Of a stretch of 43,235 nucleotides of DNA, positions 5,153 through 40,879 are shown piece by piece. The stretch covers positions 22,782-66,016 of the forward strand of contig PS015221.1 in assembly GCA_048213135.1 (NCBI GenBank), in the 5' to 3' direction. The notes under the pieces are model-generated. The model saw only the letters and a list, made by a program, of their open reading frames with translations, made no database searches and had not been told where the DNA came from. This DNA is from Reclinomonas americana ATCC 50394 (Eukaryota). The position numbers were made by a program, and so were the translations under genes. Positions within the stretch are counted from its first letter, which is position 1. Every line of letters starts with the position of its first letter.

Positions 5153-5799
5153 CTTCTCGAGCTCAGTGTAAAACGTAATCGTGAATGCCGGCATTGCATT
5201 CACACCTGCAGGCGCCAGTGCTTCAGCCTGTCGTCCCTCTCCCCCCTCCTCCCCTCGCTCCCTCCCTCTCTCCCACTCAACTCTTCGTGCGGTACTCCTC
5301 CAGTGGCGTCATGAGACAATGCTGACCCTGGAACTGTGCCACCATACTCAAGTAGCCCTCGCCCTTGATCAGTGGCAAGACAAACATGGGACTGCAGAGG
5401 GAGAGACGTGAGGAGACGACGGCTAGCGAGCGGGGATAGAAGAGGGGAGGAGAGGAGACCATGCTTTGCAGTGCGCCTGCAAGTCCTGGAAGACGTTCGA
5501 GTTGAGAGTCATTGCGACAGCATCGTTCCGGCTCAGATGATGCTGCATGCAAGGAATGAGAGGACTTCTCCGACAATGCACACTCACACACACGTGCACA
5601 CACACACACACCTCCGACCAGATGGCTGCCACACGTTCTTTGGGTTCACTGTGTGCGTGCAGAGTGAGCGCTGAATGAAGGACTGGCATGGAATGCATTG
5701 CGCGGACCGCATGAGAAGAGGCAGCTTGACGATCTGATCGAGGGCTCTTGACCCCGGCCATGTGAATGACATGTACCGCCGTGCGGTTCTGAACAGCAT
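5153..5799 (-). CDS. ATP11: ATP synthase F1 assembly factor ATP11/ATPAF1 (3' end lost in gap)
   Basis: Spliced translation MLFRTARRYMSFTWPGSRALDQIVKLPLLMR|EPKERVAAIWSE|HHLSRND...CKAC|PMFVLPLIKGEGYLSMVAQFQGQHCLMTPLEEYRTK|SVNAMPAFTITFYTELEK. It matches the ATP11 motifs LDxIVKL, IWxxHH, PMFVLPL, LEEY and YTEL, and has an Arg-rich targeting-like N-terminus. Confidence 0.88.
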
Positions 5800-6080
5800 T
5801 CCTTGTTCTCGACGAGATGGAAAAGGGAGCGACGAAGTAGGACACTCCAAGAGGACACGATACGAGACAACTGCGACGAGACGGAGGCGACGACGTCGTC
5901 ACAGAGGGTGCTTGGTGTTTCACCAACCTTGATCTCCTAGTTGTCGTGTCAAGGATCAAGGGTAACAGATGCAGGGGTTGACGTGCACAAGGACGAAGGG
6001 TCAAGGCTCTCGTGTGACTTCTGTTCACGAAACAGTCTCCACTACATTCTCGCCAACAAAGCGGAAGCACGGGGTGTGCT

Positions 6081-8287
6081 TTAGAGAGCGGATGAGTTGG
6101 TCGAGGCTCCGGCACCGGAATTCGGCGACAACGGAGCAGGAGCAGGAGCTGGGACAGGAGCCGCCGCGGCCGGTGGTGGCGGGCACGGAGCCGTGGGCAT
6201 GGCGGAGCATTCATCAAAAAGATCCTTGAACAGAGCAGTTGACAGGTCTGCAGAAAGCGCATCCGAGTGAATACACAAACTCACACAGCACAGACAGCAA
6301 TGATTGCGACGCAACAGCGTTCGCCAAAGCTGGGCTCCACCACCTGACGAGATACGCAAGTGATGAGGAGGGGGACGCCAACGAAACCGACTTTGCTGGC
6401 ATGACAGACGCAACGACAATCAGCTTGCCCTCGTTCTCCGGCTGCTTTGCCAGCTCCACTGCGCTGTGAATCTGTGCACAAGGTGAGGGGGGGGGGAAAG
6501 AACACAACTGCCCTGCACGCTGCTGACACACACCGCTGCACCGCTGGAAATGCCACAGAAGATGCCTTCCTCCTTGGGCAGGCGGCGCGCCATCGTCAGA
6601 GCTGTGTGCCAGCTGCGTGAGCACACACACAAAACATGCAAAAGTGCGCTAAACTCACCGGTTTGTGACGACACCTGGATGATTCCGTCGACCACCTCGC
6701 TGTCATAGATCTGCACTGCCAGTGAGCACAGACATTGTCGATTCCTGTCGCCGCGACACGCACACGCAACATCTGGCTTGAATCCGGCGCCAATGCCCTG
6801 GATCATGTGCGGACCGGGCTTGTTGCCACTGAGAACAGCCGACTCGACGGGTTCCACGGCGAACGCCTGCATGCCGACGCGCGTGCATCAGTGAGGAGGA
6901 GATGTGCACACATCACGGTCAATTATGGTGGCTCACACGCCAGCACCTTCACACTCGGCTTCTGCTCCTTCAGGAACTTGACAGCACCGGAGATGGTGCC
7001 GCCTGACACAAGATTGCACATGAGTGAGCCAGCAGAGCAGGGGGCGAAACTCGTCGAATTCACACACCAGTGCCCACACCACCGACGAAAATGTCGACTT
7101 CGCCCGCGGTGTCGCGCCAGATTTCCGGGCCAGTGCTGCGTGTATGTCTGGTGTGAGCCTTCTCTTCTATTCGTTCCACACCCCCGCAGCACAAGGAACG
7201 CAACGTGTTGTAGTGGATCGCAGGATTGGCGGGGTTGCCAAACTGGTTGGGCATCCACGAGTTCGGGATCTCCTCCAACATCTGCCTGGCCTTGCGCTGC
7301 AGCACGAGGGAGTGGGGGGCAAGAGTGAGGCAACAGATACAGGCGGGGACATGTCGGGTAAACTCAACTGCAGCTCCGGGAATGCCAAACTCGCGCGGCG
7401 TCAGCACCAACTCGGCACCAAACGCACGCAGCAACACACGGCGCTCCATCGAGAAGCTATCCGGCATCACTGTGTTGCGTGGGAAAACGAAAAAAAGTGT
7501 GAGCAGACCGAACACACAGCACAGCATACAAGAATGAAAAGAGGCGGCCTCACCGAGGATGGCCTTGTAGCCCTTGACGGCGGCGGCAAAGGCCAGCGCA
7601 ATGCCAGTGTTGCTGCGCAGAAGAGGGAAACGAAAAGAACAAGCAAGCGAGAAAAGTCAGCGGTGAATAACGCTGCAAACTCGAGTGAGAGATACAGCTT
7701 GCCGCCGCTGTGCGCACCCTGATGTGGGTTCGATAATGGTCGTGATGCCCGGTGTAATGATGCCGCGCTCCTCGGCGTCATCCAGCATCGCCTTGCCAAT
7801 GCGGTCCTTCACCGAGCCGCAAGGCTGCGCGCGCGCGTGCGAGGAGAGGGCGTGAGTGCGACATGTCGGTCCACCATTGTCGAGACACACACACACACAC
7901 ACACAGACACACCTCTTGCGCCTCGAGCTTGACGGCGACGCGAGCGACGCAGCCCTCGGTCACGCGGTTGAGGTACACCATGGGTGTGCCTGTCGTGCAT
8001 TCGCGTGAGCACACGCAATCAGACGACCACACACTCTGTCTCTCACGCACGCACCACCGACGAGGTCGAGCATCGTCGCGGCGATTCGGTTGGTGGATCC
8101 TGCAGCTGCGTGCGTGCATGCATGTATGCGCGAGTGCGAGTGAGTGAGTGAATGATGACACACACACAATGCTCCGATGCATCAGTCGTCGCTTCTCGTT
8201 GCAATGCAGTGCTCTCTCTCTCTCTGTCAGTCGACTGTGAAACACAGTGTGTGCAAGTGTCTCTGATGTGCACTCACCAGATGCCAT
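6081..8287 (-). CDS. cysK: Cysteine synthase / O-acetylserine (thiol)-lyase, CysK-type, 15 exons
   Basis: Spliced motifs [23 protein letters not shown] (PLP lysine), [76 protein letters not shown] at 8287, TAA at 6081-6083. Confidence 0.96.
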
Positions 8288-8494
8288 GGGGGACGGGGTT
8301 GCCTGTGCGTGCGAGAAGAGCGACAAGAATTTAATTTCGTCGGCCCCTAATGTAATGTGTTCGGAACGCTCCGAATGAACGTTGCAGCTTTCGCATATTT
8401 ATTCAAGGCAAAGACAAACGCAGAGAGCGAAGAAAGAGAGCACGCCCGACTAATTCTTAATCGAGTATTCTATACATAAAAAACGCACATCGAA

Positions 8495-9670
8495 TTACCA
8501 GGCTGACTTGTTGTCGGTCGCGCCATGGCCAGCCTCGACATCCTTTGCCCGTCCCGACGGGGTGTAGTTGGCGGCGGAGGGACTCACCGCCCGGCGAGCG
8601 GCGGCGCCATCGCGGAAGAAGAAGGACAGGATGAGCGTCACAAACACGAGCCATGTGCCGACCCTGCATGCGCAGCGTGTGAGCACGGAGGGGAGCACGC
8701 CACACGCGAGTGCGCATGCAGCAGTTCACGTACCAGAAGATGATGTAGCTCCAGTCCCATTTCTGCAATCGGAAAGAGGCGCTGCGAGTGAGAAGGAACA
8801 CGACACCAGGTGCACTACACATGCATCCCTGCATTCGACGCAACTGCCTTGCCGTTCACTCCGTACAGCGGGTCGCACGGTCCGAGCGTGTTCTGGTTGG
8901 TGTAGTACGCGACGGCGGCGAGGCACAGCTGCAGCAGAAGAAAAATGCATGAGCACAGCGATCACACACAAAGGTACAGGGAAACCAGCATCGCACGAAC
9001 CCCCCACGAGATGAAGGAAATGACCTGCAATGACAAACACGCAACACGATGTGAGACGACACGGCGACACATCGACAGTTTTCTGTTGGACGCACCGCGC
9101 ACACCCACTTGATCGCGGTGAGTGGTCGAATCACGTAGATCAGAAGGAAGACAAAGAGGAGGCAGGCCATGCCCGTCCCACTGGCACCGACACCGAGCGT
9201 CTACGCAGTCGCGTTGAGTGGTGGTGATCAGTCAGACAGACAACAAAGTATCGAAAAACACACGCAACGACGCGATTGATCTGCGCGTCACTCGTGCTCC
9301 CCGTGTAGCATGCCGGTCCATTCACAGGGTCGTCGTAGTTCGTGCACAGCCACCTGCGTGCACACGCCAGTGTCACACAAAAGCGGAAAGTCACAAGGTT
9401 CATGATTGGCTGTTGCAGCAAACAAACCCATTGCGGAGGCCGACTTCGAAATAGTATGCCGGCCTGCAGTCTTGTTTGCTGTGTTGTCGGAGGCACACGG
9501 AGAGAGGGAGGAGAGTGACAGCGTGAGTTTTCAGACGGAGAGCTGCGAAACCGTACACACACACACACACGCAACATCCAGTGCCACGACTTGAGGCCGA
9601 GGACGCAGCAAGCGATCGCTCCACCGACCAGTACCAGACACACAATGGCGAGGGCGCGACCAGTGGTCAT
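8495..9670 (-). CDS. Small tetraspan membrane protein, claudin/PMP22-superfamily-like
   Basis: Four hydrophobic segments across about 7 exons. The first loop has W..W...GL..GWLC...C, WDWSY precedes TM4, and there is a short polar tail. A possible 5'-UTR intron lies at about 9673-9749. Confidence 0.6.
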
Positions 9671-10409: not shown

Positions 10410-13288
10410 ATGAAATTCGGGCGTCGTCTCTACGAGTACTCGGTGCCCGAGTGGTTCTCGCAGTACTTTGCCTACAAGGCGCTGAAGAAAATGGTCTCAA
10501 TCCTCGGCGACGCTCTCGCACTCCCTGCTCCGGTGAGTGGCCTCTCTCTCTCCCTCCCTCTCCTCTCTTCTCTCCTCTCTCTCTCTCTCTCTGTGCACTC
10601 TGTTCATGCATGTGTCTGTGTGTGCGCCAAAAGCTACGTGAGCACCGAGCGCATTCCGTGTCGTCGGACGGCGCGAACACCGAGCTTGTGTCGCTGGTCA
10701 GCGGCGGTGCGGCAGGAGCGGCAGCTGTGGAAGTGGATTCCAGCAGTGAGCCGAGTCTGCCGGCGAGTGACTCGTTCACCGTCATCAAGCGCCTCGGTCA
10801 CATCAATCGTCACTTCAACCTGGGCGTGTCGGCGATTGTCGAGGTGCGTGCGCATGCGTGCGTGCGCGTCGCCTTTGGGCGCTACTTCCTCTCACGCCAC
10901 TCAAACTCATCGCAGCTGGATGCTTTGGATGCGAGCCAAGTGCCGTGTGTGACGCGCGCGCTGGCCGTAGAGCTCATTCTGGAGGCGTACCGCGTGCAAA
11001 TGGCCAAGGCCAGCAGCTTCTTTGCGGAACGCGTGGCGCCGGCAATGCAGCGGTGGGAGGAACTGAAGACGGTGGCGCCTCGCTCGCTCCTCTCCAAGGA
11101 CGCGCTCAGAATGCCGGCCTCCGAGTACGCGGATCTGCTGAGCGCGGCGGAGCGCACGTTCAAGGAGCAGTACTCGATGGTGTTTCACCTCGAGAACTTT
11201 TGGTGAGCTCTCCTTCATCTTGTGAATGCTGTTGCTTGCCCCCCCTGCTGCCTGACTGACACTCTTCCATGCATCTCGCACAAAGCATTCTCAACGTGAC
11301 GGCCGCACTCAAGATGCTCAAGAAAGTGCGCAAGAAAATGCGCGCGCGTCGACACGCCCCCCAGGCGACGCTGGCCGACACGCAGCAGAAGATCGAGGAG
11401 TGGGATTTGGGTCGGCACGCGGTAGAGCTCAGCCAGGTGTGCGATCAGCTGGAGAGACTCTTCGAGAAGCTGTTTGTGCACAATCCGCGCATGCCCACCT
11501 CGTCGTCGTCGCTGTCGGTTCGCGGAATGCGCCAACCGCATCACGCCGACTCGTTCCTCGGAGGTTTGTTCATCGGGCTGACAGCATCGTGCCTCATGGC
11601 CCTCGGCTTCATGTTCAACGGCGATGTGTCGACGAGTATCAACTCGGCGCACTACGCCGCCGAGCTGGCTCTATTCCGTTGCCTGTTTGTGATTGGCTTG
11701 GCCTTTGTCGGCTGGAGCCTCAACACATACGTGTGGCAACTGTACAAGATCAACTACGTGTTCATCTTTGGCTTCGACCCTCGCACCACCCTCACCCCGC
11801 ATAGGGCACTGGCAGTGGCCACGGCTTTCATGGCGGTCTGTGGCGTCTTCTTCTTGGTGTGGATGACCATTATCTCGTCCGACCTGAAGACCGCCGTTCC
11901 ACGACAAGTGTTTGTGTATCCTGTGGTTGCGGTCGGTGCGTGTATGTGAGCCTTCGCGATAGCCGTCTTCGAATTCTCTGTGTTCACTTACGTTCCGTTG
12001 CAGTGGTCTTGGTGCTGATCAACCCGTTTCGCATCATGAATTACTCGGGTCGCATGCTCTTCCTGCGCACCACCTTCCGTATCGTGACGGCGCCGTTCCA
12101 CATGGTGACGTTTGGCGACGTGTTCCTCGGCGACATTTTCACCAGCCTGACATCCGCGCTGAACGACTTCTTCGCGAGTATGGCGGCCGTGGCGACAAGT
12201 GAGGTTCCGCTTGGTCTGACGCTGAATCGGACAATCACTGCACTGGCACTGGGCTTGCCGTATCTGTGGCGCATGCTACAATGCTTGCGGCGGTATCGAG
12301 ACACGCGACACGCGTGGCCACATCTGGCCAACGCCGTCAAGTATTTTTCGGCGTTCCCCAACGTCGTGTTTGGTGTGCTCGAGACGTACGATGGGCGCTA
12401 CTTGGTGCCACTGATCGTCAGCTACGTCGTGTCGGCGGTCCTTCGTCTGTACTGGGACTTGAAGGTTTCGTTGTGCGGCGCCTAGAGCTTGCTTCATTCC
12501 ATGCGTGCATGTACCCACTTGCGCGCCGCAAACAGATGGACTGGGGACTGTTGGATTTCAAGCAAAAGAAACACTGGCTCCTTCGCAAGGTTGAGAGCTC
12601 GCCATATGGGCTTCGTTCTCTGCCAACTCTCATACATGTGTGCTCATTGCTTGCGTTTTTTTTTTTGCAGCAACTGACGTTCCCCAAGTTTGTGTACTAT
12701 GTGGCCTTTTTCCTCAACTGTGTTCTCCGCATGGCATGGATCGTGCAGGTACGTGTGTACGCGCGTGCTCTCCTCTCTCCCCGTTGTCTGGTCGTGACTC
12801 TCGTCGTGCAGGTTACCATTATTGTACGCAACAGTCTGGCGAGGCCATTTGTGCAAGTCGGTCTCGCCGCCGCCGAAGTCACTCGCCGTGTCGTGTGGAG
12901 TTTCATTCGTGTGGAGAACGAGCATCTGACCAACTGCGACGGCTTCCGGGCCTTCAAGCTGACGCCTCTCCCGTTCCAGCCAGTGCACTTGCAAGATACG
13001 GCGACCGACCCGAATGCACAATCGGCGCAAACCATCGAGTTGGAGGCGTCTGTCGCCATGCTGCCGACCACCGAGAGCGCCCGTCTGCGTGCGCTCTCTG
13101 TACCACTAGTCAATAGCGATGGTAAGTCACACTATGTGTGCGTAAGCACAGGACCACCACTTCTTGCACACCTGACAGTCGCCTTGACAGGTGAAGCCGA
13201 GCAGGCGCTCTCAAGAACTCCTGACGCGACCGACTGGGAGCAGCGTTTCAATCGTCGCTCCAAGTCCATCCATTTCCATCATCTGTAA
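10410..13288 (+). CDS. SPX-EXS domain protein (XPR1/SYG1/PHO1-family phosphate exporter), 9 exons
   Basis: SPX motifs: MKFGRRL...PEW..QYFAYKALKK and CILNVTAALKMLKKVRK. EXS motifs: INYVFIF, FGDVFLGDIFTSL, LQCLRRYRDT, HLANAVKY, YWDLKMDWG, EVTRRVVWSFIRVENEH. The TAA is followed by AATAAA. Confidence 0.95.
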
Positions 13289-13326
13289 GTAATAAATGTA
13301 CCAGTAGTCCATGTATCCCGCGGACT

Positions 13327-15841
13327 TCAAAGCTGGATGTCGAAGACGCCGGCAGCAACGAGTGTGCTCGCGGCATATGCACACGTCTCCGCATCGCGGC
13401 TCACGTCGTTGTAGCGCAGATCAAGAAATCGCAGCACGTGGCCGCCATTGAGCAGAAGTGAGTCGGTGAGACGCTGGACGGTGGTTGCACTTACGGCATT
13501 GTCTGCAGAACAGGCCGTGTGTGAGTCCAGCGCACGCAGTCACAAAAAAGAGAAGCGTGGTAACTTTGTACATCCAAATGCTGGAGTGTCTCATTGTGAC
13601 GCAGCGCCGAGACGAGGCCAGCACCACTCAGATCGTTGCCACGAGCGATGAGTGTCTTTAGCGCGCTGTCGTTCACCAGCAGTCGCACGAGGTTGTCGAA
13701 CGCTGCGTACTCCCGGCTTGAGTCACACCCTTCAACACGCGGATGAATGGGATGAGGATACCTGCAATCGAGTCCGGGTCCAGGATCATGCCGCTGATCT
13801 CCAGCACCTCCAGACTGCTGCTCCACACCACCGCCGTGCCCAGCATCTCCAGATCGTCCTCGTGGAGCCAGTTCTCTGTGTCGCGAGAATGAGAAAGGCG
13901 GAAAGACCGCCAACACGCGCCTCATGCACGCACCATTCAACTTGAGCGTGACCAGCGGCGATTCGCGCAGCGCCGCCCACGCCACAGACATGGCGTCAGG
14001 ATCCGGCTCGGCCACATTCATATTGTCGAGTGCTGTCTCTCAGAGGTCAGGACAGAGTGGGTGCGTTTGTGGCGTTCTGTGCGTGCGCGTTGCGCAACTC
14101 CACACGCGCGACAAGTCCAACGAGGTGAGTCGACACACCCCGTCGGAACTGATGGCATCGAAAATGGGGTCGAGTGACACCAGTGTCCCCGGAGCGCCGG
14201 CCACCGACAGCGAGCGCAACGAGGACGTTCGCCGAATCAGTTCGTTGGCCACCAGTTGCACGCCCTCCGTCGACCCCAACAGGCGGTGGCCGCCGACGCC
14301 AAAGTGCACCAGCTTGCGGTGTTCACGAACCACTGCCAGCAACGGTTGCAGCTCTCGTGGATCGAGCTGATTATCGGCAAACTCAAACGCGAGTAGTGGC
14401 AGAGCGCGACTCGCCGACATGCCCAGCTGCTCTGCCAGCGCCTCCACTGTGCGCTGAATGTCGGATGCGCGGGCCAGCGGCAGAGTGCCTGTGGCGAGGT
14501 CTCTCATTGTTCAGTATTTTTGTGGCACAACACGAAGAAACCGCCGAAGACACAGCGCACCCGACAGCGTGAGGTGCTGCGTCGTGCATGCGGGATCCGT
14601 GCACACGATTTGCATGAGGGCCACATGATCGTCTGCAAAAACACTGCGGATGAATAACGTAGCCACATAAAATGCTCCCAAACACACTTTTTCCGAACGC
14701 AACCAAGCGACAGAACCACACCGCCAATGGTCAGCGTGCGCAGCTGACACAGCAGGGCGCGTGAGGGCAGCGGACTACACGTGGCAGCATGCAGCACCGA
14801 CACTGGAGGTCGCTCAAAGCGGATGCACAGCGATCGGAGGGAAGTGGCGCCCGGCATCGCCTCCAGTGCACTCGCCCACCACCGCTGCGCAGTGGTCAGC
14901 GAACGCTCCACTCCACCGCCGCCACTACCACCGCCATGCCGCGCAGCTCGTCGCGCTTGCGACGCCTCCCACATGCGCACCGCGAGCATGGCACCACCAC
15001 CTGCACTCGCGTAGTCATCGTCGTCGTCGTCGTCGTCGTCATCATCAAAGTCGTCATCTTGCTGGCAAAAATCCTCGTCGCCGGCATCAAAGTCCCCCAG
15101 TTGTAGCAGCAGATCGTCGTCATCTGCATCTGCATCGCCACCATCCACACCCGGGCCACCAGCGCAGCCTAGCCACCAGTGCTGTGCGTCACGCATCTCC
15201 GGCGAACCGACACCCGGCGGAACAACTGTTGCGCATCGATCGGCATCAACACCAAGGCGCCCCGCACTCACGTCGCCCGACAACAACAACAACGCAACTC
15301 GCATCAATCTCCAGCGACTGCAACTGCGGTGCACGCGACAGCAACGCCGGCACGAACCACGACGCTGCACGACGACTCTTCTTGACCGGTGCCGTCACCT
15401 CCAGCCGAAAGCGATGCCACATGCGCACGGCCTCCTCCTCGCGAAGAAGCCGATGCAGCTGTTGGTACGTGCCAGCACGCAACGCCATTGTCACCTCGTG
15501 CAGGCCGCACACTGCGTGGAGTGTGGATTACACAGAGAGGCAGTCATGCATGCACAGACAACTCACTCTCGTGCGTACCAAACAGCGGCGCAACGCCGAC
15601 GCCGACGGTGACCACTGATCGCACATCTGCGGATGTCAGAAACGAGAACACATCTGTGCACGTTCGCTGTGAGACTGGGGGAAGAGAGAGAGAGAGAGAG
15701 AGCGGAGGGCGATGAGCGGAGAACGAAACTGTGCCACACCTCCTGCAATGTCGCAAACAGTGCAGTGAGAGTCAGGAGAGAGATGAGGTGCGGGAAGAGC
15801 AGCAACGCAACTGCAGGCAGAGGCAAGTCGACAAACCTCAT
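13327..15841 (-). CDS. F-box + RNI-like leucine-rich-repeat protein with internal poly-Asp tract
   Basis: The F-box LPA|EVWHN|VFSFLTSADV is rebuilt through a 13-nt micro-exon (15742-15730). LRR units include LRSLSVAG, LTSLDLS, LKTLIARGNDL, LQHLDVQ and LRFLDLRYNDV. TGA at 13327-13329. Confidence 0.8.
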
Positions 15842-16515: not shown

Positions 16516-16964
16516 TCAATCGTCTTCACCGGGTCGGCACACCAGCACCTGCGCGCAAAAGTGTGAATTTCTCTCCACGAGCAACGTCGACGCACACCAG
16601 AAGATCGCCAACTCACCGAGCATGGTGCATGGCTGCTCACCACATACAGATATGAACCAAATACGCGCATCAGCAACACGAGAGCAAGACGCCGAGGTCG
16701 ATCACACTTCGAACAACGCAACTGCACAACGTACTCGGAAACGCTGCCGATCAAAGCTCGCTGGGAGACGATGAGCAACAGAAGATGCACAAAGGACCCC
16801 CCCGAGTGCCTACCTTTATTGCGCCCATTCCGCGCGATCCAATGACTGCAGAAGAGAATGAGGAAAAAAAGATGCTGCAGAAAGATGCGAAGGGCGACGA
16901 CGTAACTGATCATGTCGACGCGCTCGGCAGTCGCCAGCTCCACCAGTCCCTCTCGTGCCTTGCC
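16516..16964 (-). CDS. Universal stress protein (USP/UspA domain), C-terminal half
   Basis: Spliced GKAREGLVELATAERVDMI|IIGSRGMGAIK|RALIGSVSEYVVH|HAPCS|VLVCRPGEDD*, containing the USP ATP-binding signature G-x2-G-x9-G-S. It is invisible in the ORF track because the exons are tiny. Confidence 0.92.
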
Positions 16965-28359: not shown

Positions 28360-31300
28360 ATGACGACGACGGCGGCGACGACGATGATGACTGCGGCAGC
28401 AGCAGCCAGGGGTCGATTGTGGTGATCCGTGCCGCAGCCCCTGCCACCGCCACCCACCATTCCTCCGGCATTCGCCGTGCCAGTGTCATGGCGTACTACG
28501 ACGAGGACTGGTGGGACGACGACGACGACGATGGAGCGGCGGCGGCGGCGGCGGCGGCAGCGGAAGCCGCGGAGTCCGCCAGGTTACAGGAGGAGGCGGA
28601 GGCGGCGGCGCGACGTGTGTGCGCCGATGTNNNNNNNNNNNNNNNNNNNNNNNNAGGAAGTTTGCCGACCGCACGAGTGTAATGTGCACAGTATCGCAAG
28701 GTGTGTGACGACGCGGGCAAGGCCAGCAAGGTCGGCGATCTGCACAGTGTGTTGCAGCAGGTGGACGACACGAATGAGGCGGCTGCTGCTGCCGCCGCCG
28801 CTGCCACGGCAGCAGCTGAGGCGGCCGAGGCAGAGCAAGAACGGAGATTCGCATTATCGTCACCGACTGCGTCTGGCACGACCACCGCCGCCCCTCGCAA
28901 TCGGTCAGTGGCACCGGCGCGCAAGTCACTGCCTACCTCGCTTCGCGGTCAGAGTGGGAGTGTCTTGGCCGACAATGATGTACCGGAGAACTCGATCGCC
29001 GTCCACGATACGGACGGCGTCGGCAGCCGACCACCGGCCGCCCAGCGTTCATCTCCACATGCCGTGTCGGCTGCGACTGCCGGCTCCTACTCTTCTCCCC
29101 AGCCACACGACACGTACACTGAGGTGCCACCGCGCCACACGTGGGACAGTCGATACGGTACGTTGCGCAGTGGAGCGGCGCTTCTCTCATTTGCAGTGAT
29201 ATTCATTGTGGCTTGGCGGCAGACACGAGCGATGCGCCCGACCCGCGGCAACTGCAGTACGACATGGAGCGTGGCGGCCGCGGTGGTGGTGGTGGCAGTC
29301 CCGGCGGTGTTGGAGAGGGGGCGATGCTTGCTGCAGGAGCAGCAGCGGCTGCCCCGTACGGTGGCTCCCGACATGCCAGTGCACCCGACACGGCGCACTG
29401 GGGAGCGGCCGTGGATCAGGAGGCACAGTTCNNNNNNNNNNNNNNNNNNNNNNNNNNNNNNNNNNNNNNNNNNNNNNNNNNNNNNNNNNNNNNNNNNNNN
29501 NNNNNNNNNNNNNNNNNNNNNNNNNNNNNNNNNNNNNNNNNNNNNNNNNNNNNNNNNNNNNNNNNNNNNNNNNNNNNNNNNNNNNNNNNNNNNNNNNNNN
29601 NNNNNNNNNNNNNNNNNNNNNNNNNNNNNNNNNNNNNNNNNNNNNNNNNNNNNNNNNNNNNNNNNNNNNNNNNNNNNNNNNNNNNNNNNNNNNNNNNNNN
29701 NNNNNNNNNNNNNNNNNNNNNNNNNNNNNNNNNNNNNNNNNNNNNNNNNNNNNNNNNNNNNNNNNNNNNNNNNNNNNNNNNNNNNNNNNNNNNNNNNNNN
29801 NNNNNNNNNNNNNNNNNNNNNNNNNNNNNNNNNNNNNNNNNNNNNNNNNNNNNNNNNNNNNNNNNNNNNNNNNNNNNNNNNNNNNNNNNNNNNNNNNNNN
29901 NNNNNNNNNNNNNNNNNNNNNNNNNNNNNNNNNNNNNNNNNNNNNNNNNNNNNNNNNNNNNNNNNNNNNNNNNNNNNNNNNNNNNNNNNNNNNNNNNNNN
30001 NNNNNNNNNNNNNNNNNNNNNNNNNNNNNNNNNNNNNNNNNNNNNNNNNNNNNNNNNNNNNNNNNNNNNNNNNNNNNNNNNNNNNNNNNNNNNNNNNNNN
30101 NNNNNNNNNNNNNNNNNNNNNNNNNNNNNNNNNNNNNNNNNNNNNNNNNNNNNNNNNNNNNNNNNNNNNNNNNNNNNNNNNNNNNNNNNNNNNNNNNNNN
30201 NNNNNNNNNNNNNNNNNNNNNNNNNNNNNNNNNNNNNNNNNNNNNNNNNNNNNNNNNNNNNNNNNNNNNNNNNNNNNNNNNNNNNNNNNNNNNNNNNNNN
30301 NNNNNNNNNNNNNNNNNNNNNNNNNNNNNNNNNNNNNNNNNNNNGGAACTGATCGAGGAGGATGTGGAGCAGGTGCGTGACAGCTGCCGGCACCTTCGTT
30401 TTTTTTGTCTCGATACAAGCTCATTGATTGGCCGCCACCGCAGTTGGCCAACGCCCCCCTGTGGGAGGACAAGCAGTCGCGACAGCGACCACTGCCGAAG
30501 CGCCCGTTGCGTCCATGATCTTCCTTCCCACCTGTCGCGCACTAGTTGGCGACTGATCCAGATTCACACAGACCAACGCGCTTTGCACTGTTTGAACGCC
30601 TGAGCAAGCGAGCTCAGGAAACGGTTTCGTATTCTTCGCGTGCGATACAGTCTGTTCGTCGACTCACTCCCTCTCTCTCCACCAACACAGCTGAAGCGCA
30701 TCGAGGGCAAGAAAGAGGAACTTCGACTGGAACGGGAGCGCTCGTTGCTGCTGACGATGAACGCTGCCACGGCTGCGGCTACGCCCCTGTTGGATGCATC
30801 GCCGCCGTCGGTTCTCGCACGACAGATTGTCACGCCTCCGGGACGGGTTCGTGCATCAGGAGTGTTTGTATCGCCTTTTCATTCGCACCTGTCTCACCAC
30901 CCCACGCCGCACACAGCCCTTCAGTCGAAGTGCTCCACCCCTGCAGCAGCAACCTCAGCAACCGCAGCGCAGCCCGTCGCCGCTGGCGCAAAGCGTGCAA
31001 GCCGCAGTGGCATTCCACAGCGCCCCGCATTCGTGGTCCCTCCCGCAGCGAACTGCCGGTCCGCTGCACGCTTCGGACAGGCTGCCGACCACCGTGATGA
31101 CGGCGCTGGCTCGCGTGGCCGGTCACCGTGAGCACCGCAGTATGTCTGCGCCGCCACCTCCCACCGATTCTGTCGGTACTGCCTCGCCACCGCCATTCTC
31201 CTCGCCATCCGACGGTAGCACGGCTGCTACTGGCGGTGGCGGTGGCGCTGGTGGCAGTCCACTCCTCTCACCCGCCAAGCGCACCCGTCGACAGAGCCAC

Positions 31301-31531: not shown

Positions 31532-31555
31532 GGAAAAAATGTAATGTTGTTACAA

Positions 31556-32276: not shown

Positions 32277-32319
<43 letters not shown>

Positions 32320-32536: not shown

Positions 32537-32579
32537 TCGAGCAGAGAGGACAGAGACGAACAACAGGACCGTACGGAGA
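32537..32579. promoter_or_regulatory. 43-bp spacer between divergent start codons (putative bidirectional promoter)
   Basis: Lies between ATG 32536 (-) and ATG 32580 (+). Confidence 0.55.
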
Positions 32580-34427
32580 ATGCAGCGGCTTGTGGCGAGT
32601 GCGCTGTGTCGCCCTCTGTCGCTCACACGTCGCGTCTTCTCCTCTGCTGCTGGTCAGTGCTTGCGTGTGTGTGTGATATGACACGCTGCAGCTGACTGAT
32701 TGCTGCTGTCAGTGGAGAGCGATGCATCGTGGGAGATTCGGCCGCAGCTCGATCTCAAGAGTCTGTGTGAACGCGCCGAGCAGATGCAGCAGAATGCTCG
32801 CAATCGAGCAGTGCAGGTCGATGTCGCAGCTGTGGTTGGTGGGTGCTGCAATGCATGTGCATCCTCCGCGCATGCAGGCGACTGACTGATGAATGATCGC
32901 GCCCAGGCATGTACGATGAGTGGCGCACGCTGCAGAAGAAGCTGGATGCGTGGCGACATGAACGCAAGCTGGTGCGTACCACTGATGACTTTGTGGTTTC
33001 CCGTGGCGTGCGACTGAGCATGTGTCGCCCAGAATGCAAATGCTGTGCATGCATGCAAGGAGGCGAGTGAACGGCAGGCATTGGTGGCCGCCGGAAAGCA
33101 GCTGAAGCAGTCGACTAGCGAGGCTGAGGCTGCTGCGGAGCTGGTACGTGTGCAGTCGCTGTCGCAGCCGGGGAGGGCTTCGCTGAGTTTTGTTGCAGCT
33201 GTACGGGCGAATGATGGAGGCTGCGCTGAGAGTGCCGAATGACACGCACCCCGACAGTCCGATTGGTAGTGAGGACCAGGCGCGACAGGTGAAGCTGCAT
33301 GGAGGTGAGCTTCGAAGGGAAAGAGGGGCATCGATGCTGCTGCAGACTCACATGTGGGTACGCAGTGCCACCTGTGTTCGCGCAAGGACCACCGCTGGAT
33401 CACGTAAAGATAGGCACCGCGTGTGACCTGTTCGACTTTACGCAGGCCAGTCAATGCACTGGCTCGCGATTCTATTACTTGAAGAACGAAGCCGCGATGC
33501 TTGAATTCGCATTGGTGCAGTACGCGCTCGCCAAGTTGCGTCAATGAGCGCGCTCATGATGATGTGCTGCGCGCTGCTGCTCATCCGCGTGTCGGCAGAC
33601 TGATACCACGAGGCTTCACTCCAATCATCACGCCGGACTTGGCGCGCCACCAGGTGGTGTCCGCCTGTGGTTTCCAACCACGTGGTGCCGCCTCGCAAGT
33701 GTACTCGATCCGCGACAGCGATTTGTGTCTGGTCGGCACGTCGGAGATCACACTGGCCGGTCTCCTGGCCGGTCGTCTGCTGGACGCCTCGGAGCTGCCG
33801 CTGCGCTTTGTCGGCGTATCGCACTGCTTCCGACAAGAGACTGGCACTGGTGGCGCTCAAGTGCGCGGCCTCTACCGTGTGCACCAGTTCACCAAAGTCG
33901 AAATGTTCGCCGTCTGTGCGCCCGCTCAGAGCGACGCGCTCCTCGAGGAGATCCGGTCGACGCAGGAGTCGATTTTTGCCGATCTCGGACTGCATTTCCG
34001 CACGCTGGACATGCCAACGGAAGAACTCGGTGCGTCGGCGTACCGCAAATACGACGTGGAAGCGTGGATGCCGGGGCGCGGCGGCTTTGGCGAGGTCAGC
34101 AGCAGCTCAAACTGCACCGATTTCCAGGCTCGGCGCCTGGCCATTCGTATTCGCGATGGCAAGAACAATACGTATGCCCACACACTGAACGGAACGGCTG
34201 TGGCTGTGCCACGCACCATTGTGGCACTGCTGGAGACACATCAGGATCCCGACGGTTCCGGATGTGTCAAGGTGTGGTGGGCGCGCGCAGGCCCGAAAGT
34301 CGATTGTTGCTCACTGGCCGGTGCACCACAGATTCCGGACTCGCTGCTGCCCTTCATGGCCGTGAAGCCGGCGGATGGCGTGATCCGGCCGCGGGTGTCG
34401 TCAGCTGAGGTTGCCAACAAAAAGTAG
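32580..34427 (+). CDS. SARS2: Seryl-tRNA synthetase, mitochondrial type
   Basis: Targeting peptide MQRLVASALCRPLSLTRRVFSS, followed by RVPNDTHP, GSRFYYLKN, LVGTSEI, CFRQETG, GLYRVHQFTKVEMF, ELGASAYRKYDVEAWMP, EVSSSSNCTDFQARRL and HTLNGTAVAVPR. Confidence 0.96.
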
Positions 34428-34494
34428 GTTGTCGAGACAGCTTGCATAGAGTGAATATTATTGTGCACAACATTCGTCAGCGTTCCATCGCAGC

Positions 34495-34563
34495 GAGAGA
34501 GGGAAGAGATAGAGAGAGAAGAGAGAGAGAGAGAGAGAGAAGAGAGAGAAGAGAGAGAGAGAG
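34495..34563. repeat. GA-rich tract between the SerRS stop and the Pol X start
   Basis: Directly visible, immediately 5' of ATG 34569. Confidence 0.9.
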
Positions 34564-34568
34564 GAACA

Positions 34569-35392: not shown

Positions 35393-35427
<35 letters not shown>

Positions 35428-38036
35428 CACTGTTGGAGGAGCAGCCAGGGATCAACATTAGGCCTGCCGACTGGGTGGCCGACAGCATTCGCCGTGGTAG
35501 CGCTGCACCCGACACGCTGAATGCGGTGGTGGAGGCCGGCGCCCGACAGGCTGCGTACGCTGCTTCGTCGGACGCTCGAACCAGCGTGGGGCGTGACATG
35601 ACACTGTCGCACACTCCCCACGCGGGCGCCGTGACTCTGGCGGAGCGGCGACGTCGAGCGGTGCGTGCGCTCTCACCACATGTCGATCGTTTCTCCCCGT
35701 GCACGTTGTGACTGTTACATCCTCGCAGAAGAACCATCAGCGTCGCCGGCGGCTCAGCAGAGACTCGCAAGGAGTCTTCGAGGAGACTGCGTACGAGAGC
35801 CCTGACGAAGAGTCGATCAGGCAGGCCCGGTCGAGGACGAGCAGGGCCGTACTACCGACGCTGGACGAGTGGTTGGCATCGTGCACGTCGCCGGAAACTT
35901 CAACATCGACAACGACGACTACAACCACCAGCGCGACCTCGGATCCGCCACTTCCAGCTGCGGGTGACAGTGGCAGCATGCTGCGCGACCCCATCCAAAC
36001 GCTGCTGAGTTTGCGTAGCCGACTGGGCGAAGCCGATGTGCTGTCGGAGGAGGATCGGCGCGAGTTGGAGCGTGAGGCACGTCCCACGATTCTTCTTCTT
36101 CTTATCCCGACTCGCTGCGTGATGTGTTCTTCTCTCGACTCATGTGAGGTGTTCTTGGCAGTTCTCTGGTGTGCGCTCCTCACTCGCATCCGAGTTGCGC
36201 GCCGGCCCGCGGTCGGAGAGAATGCTCGAGTCATTCGAGAATCAGCGGCGTGCAACCGATCCGGTGGTACGCAGCGTTGGATGAGAGTGCATCCGTTCAT
36301 CTCGAACTCTCTCCCTCACCTTGCACCGCACAGTGTGCTTCCAATCGACCACTCATCCAAGAGCTGCTCGACTACGCCGATGCCAATGCAATGGTTTCAT
36401 GATGGCTGTACACGTCCGAGTGCTTGAGTTGGCCTGTTCATGTGTGCCCCTCGATTGCAGGCTGGTGACGAGTGGCGCGTGCTGTCGTACCGACGCGCTG
36501 CGGCAACCATTGCGTCGCTGCCACATGAGGTATGCACGAACTAGCTCAGAGAGTGGCGAGACCACAAGCTGACTGCGCCTCGCAGGTGACACGGGCGTCA
36601 CAGTTAAAGGGCATTCCGGGATTCGGACCGCGCACGCTGGACCGCATTGACCAGTTTCTCAAGGTGTGCACAGGAGATGGCTGTCGTGTGTGTGTGTTCA
36701 ATCACCTACGATGCTGCTGCTCTTCGTGGACAGATCGGACACATTCCGCGCAAGGAGGCTCTTGTGTCGCAAGAACACAATCAAGTGGTCGATCTCTTTC
36801 GCGGCATCTGGGGCGTCGGCTTCGAGACGGCTCGTGCCTGGTACCAGGCCGGATACCGGACACTGGACGACGTGCGGGAGCGTGCCAGCCTCACACCAGC
36901 ACAGCTCGTCTCTCTGCGCTACTGTGAGGATGCCAAGCAGCGGATTCCGCGTGATGAGGTGCGCCAGATTGAACAAATTGTACGCGAGGAGGCGCAGAAG
37001 CTGTATCCGGAGCTTGTCGTGTGCGCCTGCGGCTCCTACCGCCGTGGCTCGGTGCGTGCTTACTCACTCTCTGGAGTGCACGAAGCTGCCTCGCTGACGC
37101 TCCCTCGCGCAGTCGTCGTCGAGTGACATTGATATGATTGTGTCGTTCGATCCGGCGGCACGCGACCCCACACCAGTCTATCCGCCAACACTCGGCATTC
37201 TGCGGCGTCTCGTCGACGCACTGCACGCACGAGGCCTCTTGACGGATGACTTGAGCATGAGCCACGGACGTGAAGAGGTTGTGATGCAGCTCTGACAACG
37301 CGCCTCCGGTTTTCCCCTTTTGCTTACGTGTTCGAGGCAGGGTGAAAGTGAGACTTATCTCGGATGGTGCAAACTGCCGGAGGGTGGCGAGTGGCACCGT
37401 CGGATCGATATCAAAGGTGAGCTGTTGTTATGTGTAGATTGAAGACACTGATGGATATCTCACCACCGGCCCAGTGTATCCGCCCGACCGCCTCCCCTTT
37501 GCCTTGTTGTACTTTACGGGGTCAGGCATGTTCAACCGGCTGATGCGACTGTGTGCGTATGCTTGTTGTATATGCATGTCGTCCATTGGCAGCAACTCAC
37601 TGTCCTCCCTGCAGACTGTCACGTGAATGTGCGTTCTCGAGTTGTCCTCTTGACTCGATTTTTGATTAATCTCACCTTTGATTCGGGAGACAGGGCTGGC
37701 ACTTGAACGACAAGTGCGTGTGTGTGCTCTTTACCCCCTGCTTCATCCCTGTTCTGTCTCATCATTCGTACTCTCAGGGGTCTTGTTCGAGTGCGTGATG
37801 ATGCTATGTGCTGCCACCACTGAAATCGAATCAAGATAACACACATTTGCTGCGCAGCGCTACAAGGACTCGAATGGCGACAAGGTGTTTGACGGCCCCA
37901 AGGTGCCATGCCGCACCGAGGAAGAGATCTTTCAGTTACGCGCAATCACGCATGCTGCTGGCAGGCACGTGCAGCTGACTGTTATTGCAGTGCCCTTGGC
38001 TTCGAGTACCGACCACCAGAACAGCGAACATTGTGA
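34569..38036 (+). CDS. Family X DNA polymerase with N-terminal BRCT domain (Pol lambda-like)
   Basis: BRCT (IVKRGGSVV...ADWVADSI), 8-kDa domain (GDEWRVLSYRRAA, IPGFGPR), IWGVG HhH, GSYRRG..SDID, RRIDIK, LLYFTGS..FNR.MR and TEEEIFHALGFEYRPPEQR. An NLS-like KRRR lies near the N-terminus. Confidence 0.93.
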
Positions 38037-38049
38037 GTCGACTGATTTA

Positions 38050-40191
38050 TTAGGAGCTTGTCGGTGCCCAGGCGCCCGGATAGTACCTGAGCAAGAGAGG
38101 TGAGACGGGCCAGTCACGACCAGCAGGGAAAGTGAATGAATGACACGTACTTGGCCAGTACGAATCCGCCCGCCGCGCCTGTGCGATCGCACATTATTGT
38201 AAGTGATCTGGCAGTGATCAAGATCAGTGGTGGAGGAAAAGGTAAACGTACCGACAATTAGGCCTGCGTTTAGGGCAAACGACTGCATATAGGATGAGAA
38301 ATCAGCGAGGCCAGGCGCGCGAGACAGGCAACGAAAGCGCACCATAAAAGTACCCGCCAGTTCCTGGAGTTCTCTGCGCTGCGTTGGCGAAATATTGCGC
38401 TCCTTCAGCACGTCATCATTGACCGCACCTGCGCCGAACAGTGAGAAAGGGAAGTGGTGCTGTGAGGAGAGTAGGGCGAGATCGCAACTGCTGCCATAAA
38501 TCATCGACAGCGCTGCGCGTACGAGGAGTGAGTGCGGATAATCAAGAAGTTTGCAAGGCGCAGCACGTTGTGCGCAACTGCCAAAGAGGCCATTCGTGAA
38601 ACCGAGGGCCACAATAATGACGTAGATGCCTGTCACGGGTAATGCAAGCCACCATGAGCACCACCAACAACAACAACAACAACAGAGAGGAAAAAAGGAA
38701 AGCACAACGCACCAGCTAGCGAATCGATCCAGTACGGTTTCACCATCATCAGCGTCGGTACAATGAGCACCACACGAGCGACCGACGAGAACATGATCCA
38801 CGAGCGAGGAACCAGCAGCACCCACTTATTGATAAGGCGCCCGAGAAAATCGGCAGCATTGAACACGCACTGCACGGCGTGGAGCGTCAGTCAATACAAT
38901 CAGCGAGCGAGTAAATGCGCTGACAGACAGCACACGCAACAATGGTGACCACCGGAAAGATACTTGGTGGGAAATGCCAGCCATTCGGTAGTGGGATTTC
39001 TGACAAGAAGCCGGGGAACACGAGCAACGACACAGCATAGACGGCGAACACCGAGATCGCTTCGGGAAGACAAAACTTGGCCGCGCGCCACACTCGACGC
39101 ATACCAGGCAGTTTCTGCACCAGCAATGAGAAACCAACGCGGCTGCGTGTAGAAAGTCAAACGTTGCGCAACAGGCGGTGCTGCTGCCTCGGCACCCAGC
39201 AGCTTCTTGGTCTCTGTGTTCTGATCACTCCGCAGTGCCGATTCAGCGTCGCCATTTGCCTCCTCTCGATTCACCGAGGCGGCGACCACGCGCTGTTGTC
39301 GCCGATGCTTCCTCACAACCTGTAATTGAGGAGGTTGGCAACCTAGTCGGTGAATGCACGGCGAATCAGCAGGAGTGGCGAACGCAACGAAATAGTGGAA
39401 AAAGTCGGAGCGGCGGATGAAAGCGTAGCCGACGACACACAGCAGCAGCACGCCGGCCGACATGGAGAAGAAGATGACGGCACCCGTGTCCACGTCTGCA
39501 CGAAACTCACGAGCGTGAGGCGCAAACGCGTGCACACAACCCACCACCGACCGACACCAGCGCCATGTACCTTTCATCGGCAACAGACACACAATGAGAA
39601 GGCGCAGAACCGAGATCACCACCGACGAGCAGCCGATGCCGAGCAGAGTCGACTGCACATACGCCTCCGGGAACAGCGTGGCCAGTGCAATCACACTGCT
39701 GTCCAGTACCGACGCGGTGAGACCTGTGCGAAACCATGCATGTGAGCACGCTCCGCTCAACGACACAGCTCGTCGAAGAATATCCGCGCACCTGCGAGGC
39801 CGACCAGCGCCACAAACATGCCATACGCCACATCCGGCGACGAGATCAGGTGGCCCACCGCCGGTGCCAGTCCCACAATCACCCCATCGATCACCAGCGA
39901 CACGAGAATACGCACCGAGAATGGCACCTTGCGCAGCCACAGAAACACAGGCAAGAACGCTGCATAGAGGTCAGCACACAGAGCAAGGAGGGAAGCATGC
40001 CTACACGCACTCACCAACAAAGGATGTCAAGTTGTAGACCATGGACACGGTGGCATTGATGCCGAGGGCATGCGTCGGGTACTGTGAGGAGAAATAGTCT
40101 GCATGCAGGGAGTAGGGAGTTAGTGACAGTCACAGTGACACACGCATAGAGCCAGCTTACCGACAGCAGACACAAAGCTGCACACGGAAGA

Positions 40192-40285
<94 letters not shown>

Positions 40286-40455
40286 GCGGCGACGACCGAC
40301 GTAGTGTGGTAGGAGTACTACTACTACCGTACCGTACGTAGTAGTGTGTGTTGTGTGTGTGTGTGTGGTAGTGGTAGTGGTNNNNNNNNNNNNNNNNNNN
40401 NGTACGTACGTACGTACGTAGTACGTAGTAGTAGTAGTAGTAGTAGTCGTAGTAG

Positions 40456-40554
<99 letters not shown>

Positions 40555-40879
40555 GCGCCACCAAGATTCGTGAGGGATCATCACACCTGTAGAATGCTGT
40601 GTGTGTTCGTGTGTGAGTGAGTGACTGTGAGTGTGGAGAAGGGGGAGAAGGCGGGTGAGCGCGCAACGAAGCAAGTAGCCGGCGCCAAGCAGCAAGAAGA
40701 GGCACCACACGGCAGAGAACTGTGTGTGCACACATTGAGCATTCATGCACGACTGCTGCACCTGCGTGTGTGTGTCACAACGCAACGCGATCGCGTGGAA
40801 TAACATCGCGCTCTGTGTCAATCGCCGTTGTGTCGTCACCCGGCTCGGCGATGATGAGAGAGCCGTACCGAGAGAGCAT
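38050..40879 (-). CDS. Equilibrative nucleoside transporter (ENT/SLC29 family), about 17 exons
   Basis: PRDR|FSAVWCLFLLLGAGYLLP|FYS|FVSAV|DYF, LFPEAYVQSTLLG, VSLLVFPG, VFNAADFLGR, LGFTNGLFG, ELAGTFM|SFALNAGLIVG. The last exon (to TAA at 38050) is inferred; an alternative stop lies at 38114. Confidence 0.92.
40196..40551. repeat. Compound microsatellite (GT)n(GA)n(TAG)n(GTAC)n within ENT intron 3, around a gap
   Basis: Directly visible. A (GT)n(GA)n block lies on both sides of gap 40382-40401. Confidence 0.95.

Follow-up and report, generated by a model that had tools for sequence, protein, structure and literature searches.

The shifted-register class of human 5′ splice sites (donors) comprises a few dozen sites. 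For these rare sites, shifted-register pairing with U1 small nuclear RNA (snRNA) is an established mechanism; they share a GU donor that carries U (or C) at +3, and they lack an exonic G (Roca and Krainer 2009, via PMC4856993). Their consensus core is displaced by one base while the cut remains at GU, and the model oligonucleotide printed in PMC4856993 has CA before the GU. Sites with a one-nucleotide bulge at +2/+3 or +3 also carry an extra U between GU and the remaining consensus (PMC4856993, Table 3). On a larger scale, the donors of Entamoeba (GUUUGU, with U1 ACAAAC) and Mastigamoeba (GUACGU, with ACGUAC) between them offer +3 U donors, a lineage-specific consensus and a possibly matched U1 (10.1101/2022.06.08.495308), and the division of donors into AG//GUNNN and NN//GURAG, described in PMC11732430, shows an exon-end base statistically coupled to the intron motif in separable classes. 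Here, we describe donor usage in a 43,235 nt stretch of DNA from Reclinomonas americana ATCC 50394 (contig PS015221.1, positions 22,782 to 66,016), hereafter the window, whose own numbering is used throughout. Its genes are heavily interrupted by introns, and about a quarter of these have donors of the form GTT[AG] that look to be displaced by one base. A donor type that is rare in humans thus looks routine here.

Two donor classes differ in the last base of the exon

Mapping of the window yielded 112 introns, of which 70 had ordinary GT[AG] donors and 27 had GTT[AG] donors, 25 of the latter reading GTTGCG. The last exonic base (position −1) at ordinary donors was G in 49 cases, T in 10, C in 6 and A in 5, whereas at GTT[AG] donors it was A in 14, C in 6, T in 5 and G in 2. 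The dinucleotide CA preceded the cut at 7 of the 27 GTT[AG] donors, compared with 1 of the 70 ordinary ones. All three differences were significant, as determined by Fisher's exact test (−1 G, p = 1.3 × 10−8; −1 A, p = 3.7 × 10−6; CA, p = 4.5 × 10−4).

An initial annotation of this stretch had listed 29 shifted donors, 25 with a base other than G at −1, 14 with A and 10 with CA. The present map, made independently, matched these proportions (25, 14 and 7, respectively, among 27 donors), and all ten CA/GTT sites exist, at 7368, 8844, 15811, 16722, 16906, 23367, 15729, 38488 and 38578 on the minus strand and at 37935 on the plus strand. Those at 15729, 15811, 16722 and 16906 are flanked by gaps, were recognised from splice signals and open frames only, and lie outside the 27 counted. 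The annotation's further statement that most ordinary donors have G at −1 was borne out by the 49 of 70 above, and the association it had predicted between the −1 and −2 bases and donor class is the one found within the window by the Fisher tests.

At junctions fixed by homology, G preceded 16 of 18 GT[AG] donors and 0 of 10 GTT[AG] donors (p = 5 × 10−6), the latter having A in 6, C in 2 and T in 2. With donors in GTGTGT repeats set aside, 46 of 60 ordinary donors had −1 G. In the cysteine synthase gene, an exonic G stood before 8 of 8 ordinary donors and before 0 of 5 GTTG donors. A motif count free of gene models, in which a branch motif and YAG were required downstream, found −1 G at 20 of 44 GTGCGT and at 1 of 19 GTTGCGT sequences (p = 0.0015).

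The intron side differed in spacing. Positions +4 to +7 of GTT[AG] donors were G in 26, C in 25, G in 26 and T in 18 of the 27, matching positions +3 to +6 of ordinary donors, which were G in 57, C in 37, G in 64 and T in 46 of the 70. The TGCGT core therefore lies one base farther from the cut in the GTT[AG] class. The intron side of this class was also far more uniform than that of the ordinary class, in which A or T occurred at +4 in 31 of 70 donors and GTGAGT, GTAAGT and GTATGT were all present. Among the remaining introns, −1 was G in 8, A in 1 and C in 1 of 10 GTT[CT] donors, and G in 3 and T in 2 of five GTC donors. The difference in −1 G between GTT[CT] and GTT[AG] donors was significant (8/10 versus 2/27, p = 4.6 × 10−5). 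As the GTT[CT] donors keep the exonic G, its loss is tied to GTTGCG, with G at +4 and a displaced GCGT core, and not to GTT itself.

Relative to expectations from codon position, GTT[AG] donors had more A at −1 (4.5 expected, 14 of 26 observed, P = 2 × 10−5) and less G (8.7 expected, 2 of 26 observed, P = 0.002), while ordinary donors had more G (23 expected, 48 of 69 observed, P = 5 × 10−10). The base before non-donor GTT[AG] sequences in the window was G in 13.7% and A in 22%, and compared with these, A at −1 was enriched at GTT[AG] donors (p = 6.5 × 10−4). The coupling of donor class to the exon end is real within the window. The contrast between classes stems mostly from the strong G requirement of ordinary donors; the second class swaps this requirement for a preference for A.

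Coding constraint did not account for the use of the second class. It had been proposed that the shifted register would serve where coding constraints prevent an exonic G, but intron phases were spread alike in the two classes. In addition, the last codon before 5 of the 8 phase-0 GTT[AG] donors lacking −1 G (CGA, CCT, GCA twice and GTC) could be exchanged for a synonym ending in G.

GTT[AG] introns carry the signals of ordinary introns

For ten GTT[AG] introns, the position was fixed by a profile score, a homologue score or Pfam coordinates, and in these, GT-AG boundaries restored both frame and homology. Keeping the intron would break the frame or bring in a stop in 19 of 26 cases. C was found at acceptor position −3 in 26 of 27 GTT[AG] and 56 of 70 ordinary introns, and a CTVAY branch motif occurred in the last 30 nt of 19 of 27 and 50 of 70, respectively. 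Median lengths were 69 nt for GTT[AG] and 73 nt for ordinary introns. GTT[AG] introns were present in 11 of 12 gene models, and within gene spans GTTGCGT occurred 22 times in sense and 4 times in antisense orientation (p = 5 × 10−4), with 41 and 18 occurrences for GTGCGT. The GTT[AG] introns are normal U2-type GT-AG introns with the usual branch and acceptor signals.

Introns of the window are short overall, with a median of ~70 nt (e.g. 6613–6658 and 7136–7204, both on the minus strand), and the CTCAC, CTCAT or CTGAC motif has a median position 16–17 nt upstream of the CAG acceptor. Within gene spans, GTGAGT is commoner in antisense (22) than in sense (14) orientation because it is the complement of CTCAC.

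Two special kinds of intron were considered and rejected. U12-type introns carry [AG]TATCCTT at the donor, with a branch site resembling TCCTTAAC; the donors here read GTTGCG, and the branch motifs are the three just named. An introner or other transposon-derived family was sought by all-against-all blastn of 115 introns, which returned only nested alternatives at the same locus and microsatellites. Apart from the splice signals, the introns had no sequence in common, which rules out a family that spread recently.

It is extremely improbable that the class arose from faulty mapping, the true donors being nearby GT[AG] sites, GC dinucleotides three bases downstream (so that GTT would be a valine codon) or ends slid by one base. 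Some results do point that way: the gene finder was exact at only 9 of 13 cysteine synthase donors before fixing, and the GC alternative scored 1.0 bits higher at 23911 and 2.6 bits higher at 21591, as judged by a single distant homologue. However, GT outscored GC by 2.6–6.5 bits at 7204, 6770, 6414, 6315, 33535 and 23367, using profiles or the homologue, and the phases of GTT[AG] introns were mixed (9, 12 and 5 in phases 0, 1 and 2), so GTT cannot be a codon in most of them. On the bit scores at these six junctions and the mixture of phases, GC-AG introns following a GTT valine codon were rejected. Homology corrections, moreover, put G/GTG or GTTGCG donors in place of false calls and so strengthened the pattern, and the model-free count gave the same contrast. 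When both boundaries were slid by one base, the loss was ~5 bits at 6315 and, for one of the two directions, ~2 bits at both 7368 and 7204; at the other sites the change was neutral. Slid boundaries were rejected on a test that discriminates only weakly; homology thus fits GT-AG boundaries without proving them.

Possible registers of a proposed donor helix

We tentatively favour, as a possible explanation, a donor-recognising helix that forms on a constant string, with a cut position that has two states and a shifted register for GTTGCG. The common donor type, G/GT[GA]NG[TC] and most often G/GTGCGT, depends on the exonic −1 G. The second type, H/GTTGCG(T), often preceded by A or CA, has the same TGCGT core one base farther on, without an exonic G. 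The helix, formed by U1 snRNA and possibly later by U6, would pair with the string G-[G/T]-T-G-C-G-T, the first G of which would always face the snRNA base normally opposite exon position −1. Cleavage would precede the first GT of the string, and would thus fall after the first G in GGT (ordinary) and before the first G in GTT (shifted). In the shifted case, the last two exon bases would face the snRNA bases usual for −2 and −3, and it is for this reason, we propose, that A and CA are preferred. The causal role of an snRNA helix shifted in this way, and the snRNA sequence that would form it, are inferred.

The composition of the exon end bears on whether such a helix would be shifted or bulged. 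In a bulged-U register, G+1 and U+2 would pair with C8 and A7 of U1, a U at +2 or +3 would bulge out, and GCGU would pair as usual. The displacement of the core by exactly one U agrees with this, and one-nucleotide bulges at +2/+3 and +3 are among the predicted human sites (68 and 51, respectively, in Table 3 of PMC4856993). A bulge would, however, keep −1 opposite C9, so that G is expected there, whereas a shift that sets G+1 opposite C9 would place −1 and −2 at U10 and G11, whose complements are A and C. At GTT[AG] donors, A was found at −1 in 52%, C at −2 in 11 of 27 (41%) and G at −1 in 7% (2 of 27, and 0 of 10 in the homology-fixed subset). These data fit the shift and count against a bulged-U helix. 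In addition, the bulged register was the best one only for the two donors with −1 G, whether U1 was canonical or hypothetical. We consider a bulge highly unlikely.

Nearest-neighbour energies were calculated for explicit registers against the canonical 11-nt U1 5′ end, with uridines standing in for pseudouridines; this end was assumed and may not be that of the organism. Ordinary donors had a mean of −5.43 kcal/mol in the canonical register (mean best over registers, −5.45 kcal/mol).

The same calculation, together with several other results, weighs against a shifted helix as we have proposed it. Means for GTT[AG] donors were −0.25 kcal/mol in the canonical register, −0.80 in the shifted and −0.57 in the bulged, with a mean best of −1.05 kcal/mol. 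The poor canonical pairing (−0.25 versus −5.43 kcal/mol, canonical U1 being assumed) is a trait shared with human shifted sites. The shifted register was best for only 11 of 27 donors, and 14 of 27 formed no stable duplex in any register. Three 2-bp segments split by mismatches make no helix, so with the canonical U1 the shift does not compensate energetically, contrary to what the duplex energies had been expected to show. C was kept at +5 in 25 of 27 GTT[AG] donors, although it would there face a pseudouridine of canonical U1. Ordinary donors with −1 G showed no preference for A at −2 (A 15, T 15, C 13, G 6) or for C at −3 (A 14, C 14, G 11, T 10). The proposal that CA/GTTRNGT is CAG/GTRNGT moved by one base therefore fails in its simple form, and the shifted class has exon-side requirements of its own, not merely an inherited consensus. 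G at −1 was not significantly depleted at GTT[AG] donors relative to non-donor GTT[AG] sequences (p = 0.26). As GTTG is preceded by G in just 57 of 435 occurrences on both strands of the window (13%), the absence of G noted in the initial annotation is not a signal in itself. A search of the window for snRNA genes gave no match at the Rfam gathering threshold and, when E was relaxed to 1, only two matches, both in repeat tracts and attributable to chance. Homology cannot tell GT-AG from one-base-slid boundaries at 3 of the 5 cysteine synthase sites. Finally, 29 junctions were fixed by homology and the remaining 83 of 112 come from the gene finder alone, and the hypothesis and its test were drawn from the same 43 kb, a single window.

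The reading put forward in the initial annotation, that of a shifted register, thus held in part. The direction of the A(−1) and C(−2) preferences fits it and the GTT[CT] control keeps the exonic G, while its energetic and coding-constraint parts did not hold as stated. We take the observation as confirmed and the interpretation as partly supported.

The energies also bear on U1 itself. The organism might have a second U1, or one that has co-evolved with these donors. Its 5′ end would differ from ACUUACCUG, for instance by carrying G at position 5 and C at position 6, perhaps together with A at position 8; a pair of U1 variants is another form of this reading. GTTGCG would then be fully complementary to one U1, the A or CA preference would come from the bases of that snRNA, and no mismatched helix would be needed. 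That canonical U1 forms nearly no predicted duplex with GTTGCG donors speaks for this, as do the near-invariant C at +5 (25/27) and the fact that C is the commonest base at ordinary +4 (37/70). With a hypothetical U1 5′ end carrying G and C at positions 5 and 6, ordinary donors reached −9.5 and GTT[AG] donors −7.0 kcal/mol, and the shifted register was best for 25 of 27; with A at position 8 in addition, (CA)GUUGCGU was fully complementary, at −11.0 kcal/mol. Precedents described in 10.1101/2022.06.08.495308 are ACAAAC with GUUUGU in Entamoeba, ACGUAC in Mastigamoeba, and Physarum, which has standard and changed variants. However, the same source describes Thecamonas and Micromonas as preferring +4 C or GYGCGY donors and yet having standard U1, and C at +4 is therefore no sign in itself of a changed U1; the GTGAGT, GTAAGT and GTATGT donors of the window (A or T at +4 in 31/70) suit the canonical sequence. 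A changed or additional U1 of this kind is, in our view, unlikely.

Also doubtful is a fuller version in which a dual donor system would place at least a quarter of introns one base out of register by means of a changed or second U1. This U1 might have G and C in place of its two pseudouridines, and perhaps A at position 8, or a second U1 might serve (CA)GUUGCGU. Where the cut falls relative to the helix would then vary genome-wide between two states, depending on whether G or U follows the paired G. With ACUUACCUG as the sole U1 5′ end, the helix would be shifted and mismatched or recognition would be assisted by protein, whereas ACGCACCUG, ACGCAACUG or a pair of variants would make the U1 a co-evolved or dual one.

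Exon and intron might, alternatively, compensate for each other without any shift. The strong, invariant GTTGCG would make the exonic G dispensable, as in the AG//GUNNN and NN//GURAG classes, and −1 A would come from contacts with U5 loop 1 or from local composition. A 5′/3′ trade-off of −1 with intron positions, giving two separable donor classes, is reported for several species in PMC11732430. The background frequency of G before GTTG and the much greater uniformity of the GTT[AG] intron side than of the ordinary one agree with such a trade-off. However, ordinary donors hold −1 G in 70–89% although 64 of 70 already carry +5 G, so the usual −1/+5 trade-off is not what divides the classes. Relaxation alone, moreover, does not predict A at −1, which was ~2.4 times as frequent as in the k-mer background and 3 times as frequent as expected from codon position. 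In three phase-0 cases, this A ends a CGA codon (102 of 526 codons for Arg) or a GCA codon (133 of 742 for Ala). We regard compensation without a shift as quite unlikely, and retain a helix in the shifted register as the favoured explanation.

Genes, junctions and individual sites

The window contains 2,922 N across seven gaps, and its G+C content is ~0.56–0.64 (2-kb windows without N runs). It holds about a dozen genes, all rich in introns. Six were named by Pfam on long open frames, and gene models supplied others (Table 1). The best protein search identities were 63% for the seryl-tRNA synthetase (SerRS), with red algae (~60%) as the best named relatives in the protein collection searched, and 41% for cysteine synthase, for which a read-through query was used; from these identities, the organism has no close relative in the collections searched. 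The nucleoside transporter, queried as a read-through open reading frame, gave no match in the homologue search. P0241, a protein of 2,592 residues, is a distant full-length relative of the large gene at 27867–17570 (−).

Introns were mapped with a gene finder based on dynamic programming and a three-periodic Markov coding score, which allowed any GT donor and any AG acceptor and gave a bonus for a CTNAY-like motif upstream of AG. The donor model was trained solely on the bases at +3 to +9 of the intron, which keeps the exon from biasing the result at −1. The final run produced 15 models with a total of 122 introns. Three of the models (starts 25163+, 27680+ and 34447−) run antisense to genes with better support, and removal of their 10 introns left the 112. 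A first finder, built on codon log-odds with a flat donor score, was dropped for its noise but had already picked GTTGCG at 33535, 15298, 14703, 14098, 19649 and 41961; a pattern-only list of introns was dropped for the same reason.

Of the junctions fixed by homology, 13 are in cysteine synthase, where all GT/GC-AG pairs within 45 nt were scored with a profile of 60 homologues. One is in SerRS, scored against a profile in the same manner; refinement of the four 5′ SerRS junctions gave an unreliable result because the N-terminal domain is poorly conserved. Five in the PolX gene were fixed from the Pfam domain coordinates of single exons. For the large gene, phmmer with P0241, a lone distant homologue, fixed 10; only ~10 junctions of that gene were informative in this comparison. 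Given the accuracy of the finder before fixing (9 of 13), perhaps a third of the 83 unfixed junctions are wrong.

Two very short exons were found. That of 14 nt at 37615–37628 (+) is backed by the length of the PolX thumb domain, and that of 13 nt at 15730–15742 (−) by splice signals only. (CA)n/(GA)n microsatellites lie in many introns and intergenic stretches (e.g. 5560–5620, 7880–7910 and 40200–40540), and mislead signal-based intron calls because they create GTGTGT donors.

Some sequences resembling the second donor class lie outside the counted set. GTTGCGTGT occurs at 9575, 9268 and 9045 (−), on the sense strand and preceded by T, C and T, and is unused by the weak membrane-protein gene model there; these are probably further donors of the shifted class. 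At the edge of an N gap, the ATP11-like gene must continue past 5281, because the Pfam ATP11 match ends there at profile position 187 of 271. The heptamer by itself is insufficient for a donor, as GTTGCGT also occurs at 23117 (−), within an exon of the cyclase-like gene that is coding and conserved. Another donor-like heptamer, GTTTCGT, recurs (e.g. 12465 (+), 30624 (+), 15729 (−), 19864 (−) and 6387 (−)), with CGT spaced as in GTTGCGT and mostly after G in the gene-finder set. The GTTTCGT donor at 6387 (−) was a false call, nested within the true intron 6344–6414.

Table 1. Genes of the window and introns with GTT[AG] donors (a slash marks the cut; positions refer to the window)
Feature	Positions	Strand	Gene or basis
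ATP11-like gene		−	Pfam
Cysteine synthase	~8100–6100	−	Pfam
SPX-EXS protein	10410–13461	+	Pfam
Class II tRNA synthetase (seryl-tRNA synthetase, bacterial/organellar type)	~32580–34427	+	Pfam, then protein search
PolX polymerase		+	Pfam
Nucleoside transporter		−	Pfam
LRR-like gene		−	Added by gene models
Cyclase-like large gene, ~2,600 codons, cyclase-like core, long low-complexity N-terminal exon	27867–17570	−	One gene model
TMEM185-like gene		−	Added by gene models
Intron CA/GTTGAGT	7297–7368	−	Cysteine synthase; top profile score among GT/GC-AG pairs within 45 nt
Intron C/GTTGCGT	7136–7204	−	Cysteine synthase; top profile score, 6.3 bits over GC donor 3 nt downstream
Intron T/GTTGCGT	6711–6770	−	Cysteine synthase; top profile score; finder had taken nested GTGCGT at 6763
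Intron C/GTTGCGT	6344–6414	−	Cysteine synthase; top profile score
Intron T/GTTGCGT	6248–6315	−	Cysteine synthase; top profile score; one-base slide of both ends costs ~5 bits
Intron AA/GTTGCGT	33535–33598	+	Seryl-tRNA synthetase; top profile score, 4.2 bits over GC alternative
Intron CA/GTTACGC	37935–37990	+	PolX; exon chain fits Pfam thumb-domain coordinates
Intron AA/GTTGCGT	23826–23911	−	Large gene; phmmer P0241 near tie, 172.2 versus 173.2 for GC 3 nt downstream
Intron CA/GTTGCGT	23295–23367	−	Large gene; phmmer P0241 best by 4.2 bits; tblastn pieces break here
Intron CA/GTTGCGT	21513–21591	−	Large gene; phmmer near tie, 50.0 versus 52.6 for GC alternative
Intron GA/GTTGCGC	19583–19649	−	Large gene; gene-finder path only
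Intron GA/GTTGCGT	15226–15298	−	LRR-like gene; gene-finder path, also with flat donor score
Intron TG/GTTGCGT (one of two with −1 G)	14489–14703	−	Gene-finder path, also with flat donor score
Intron GA/GTTGCGC	14033–14098	−	Gene-finder path
Intron CA/GTTGCGT	8763–8844	−	Small membrane-protein gene; gene-finder path; acceptor uncertain
Intron CA/GTTGCGC	38513–38578	−	Nucleoside transporter; gene-finder path
Intron CA/GTTGCGA	38429–38488	−	Nucleoside transporter; gene-finder path
Intron TT/GTTGCGT	38870–38940	−	Nucleoside transporter; gene-finder path
Intron CT/GTTGCGC	39115–39172	−	Nucleoside transporter; gene-finder path
Intron TC/GTTGCGT	39293–39388	−	Nucleoside transporter; gene-finder path
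Intron CT/GTTGCGG	41885–41961	−	TMEM185-like gene; gene-finder path, also with flat donor score
Intron GC/GTTGCGT	42296–42363	−	TMEM185-like gene; gene-finder path
Intron CC/GTTGCGT	30506–30571	+	Gene-finder path
Intron GC/GTTGCGT	3103–3167	+	Gene-finder path
Intron GA/GTTGCAT	3837–3905	+	Gene-finder path, weak support (1.0)
Intron AA/GTTGCGC	4090–4160	+	Gene-finder path
Intron AG/GTTGTGA	37278–37340	+	Not separable from T/GTGATGC at 37281; both keep PolX frame
Likely intron CA/GTTACGT, uncounted	16846–16906	−	Gap-flanked stretch; site of the initial annotation; signals and open frame only
Likely intron CA/GTTGCGT, uncounted	15743–15811	−	Upstream of LRR-like gene; site of the initial annotation; signals only
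Likely donor GA/GTTGAGT, uncounted	5275–5281	−	ATP11-like gene, N-gap edge

Comparison with known systems

In human, all validated noncanonical registers account for 1.5% of sites, as given in PMC4856993, whereas the GTT[AG] class makes up 27 of 112 introns here. The pairing also differs: human shifted sites use long AAGUAU-type pairing, and the sites described here have a GCGU core that is weak with canonical U1. One-nucleotide bulge sites keep −1 opposite C9, from which a preference for G is predicted, whereas the GTT[AG] class has no G preference. Entamoeba, as described in 10.1101/2022.06.08.495308, has the atypical donor in 88–90% of introns, in an intron-poor genome with a single class in the canonical register. 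The window, by contrast, has intron-dense genes that use two classes side by side (27 GTT[AG] and 70 ordinary among 112), the atypical one apparently displaced by one base. The present division also differs from that between AG//GUNNN and NN//GURAG. It is one of two spacings of the same core from the cut, with A as the new −1 base, and not of −1 G versus +5 G, because both classes carry the G of GCGT. A literature query for the strings GTTGCG and GTTGCGT (or their GUU forms) returned no splicing title among the matches listed, which does not imply absence beyond them.

Shifted and bulged U1 registers have so far been rare exceptions, proven by single minigenes in human cells. If our reading is correct, a class displaced by one base and used at about one intron in four would offer a large natural sample. 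It would make approachable how the cleavage site is fixed apart from the U1 helix, how U6 handles the extra base, and whether snRNA 5′ ends and donor classes co-evolve. Gene finders trained on GTRNGT would place splice sites wrongly in a large fraction of this organism's genes; our own misplaced 4 of 13 cysteine synthase junctions.

Among known mechanisms, the closest is the register shift of U1 at rare human sites, and the nearest genome-wide oddity is the GUUUGU donor of Entamoeba with its matched U1. Neither of these systems, as described in the sources cited, has what is seen in the window: two discrete donor classes in one intron-dense genome, which differ both in the spacing of a common core from the cut and in the base that ends the exon.

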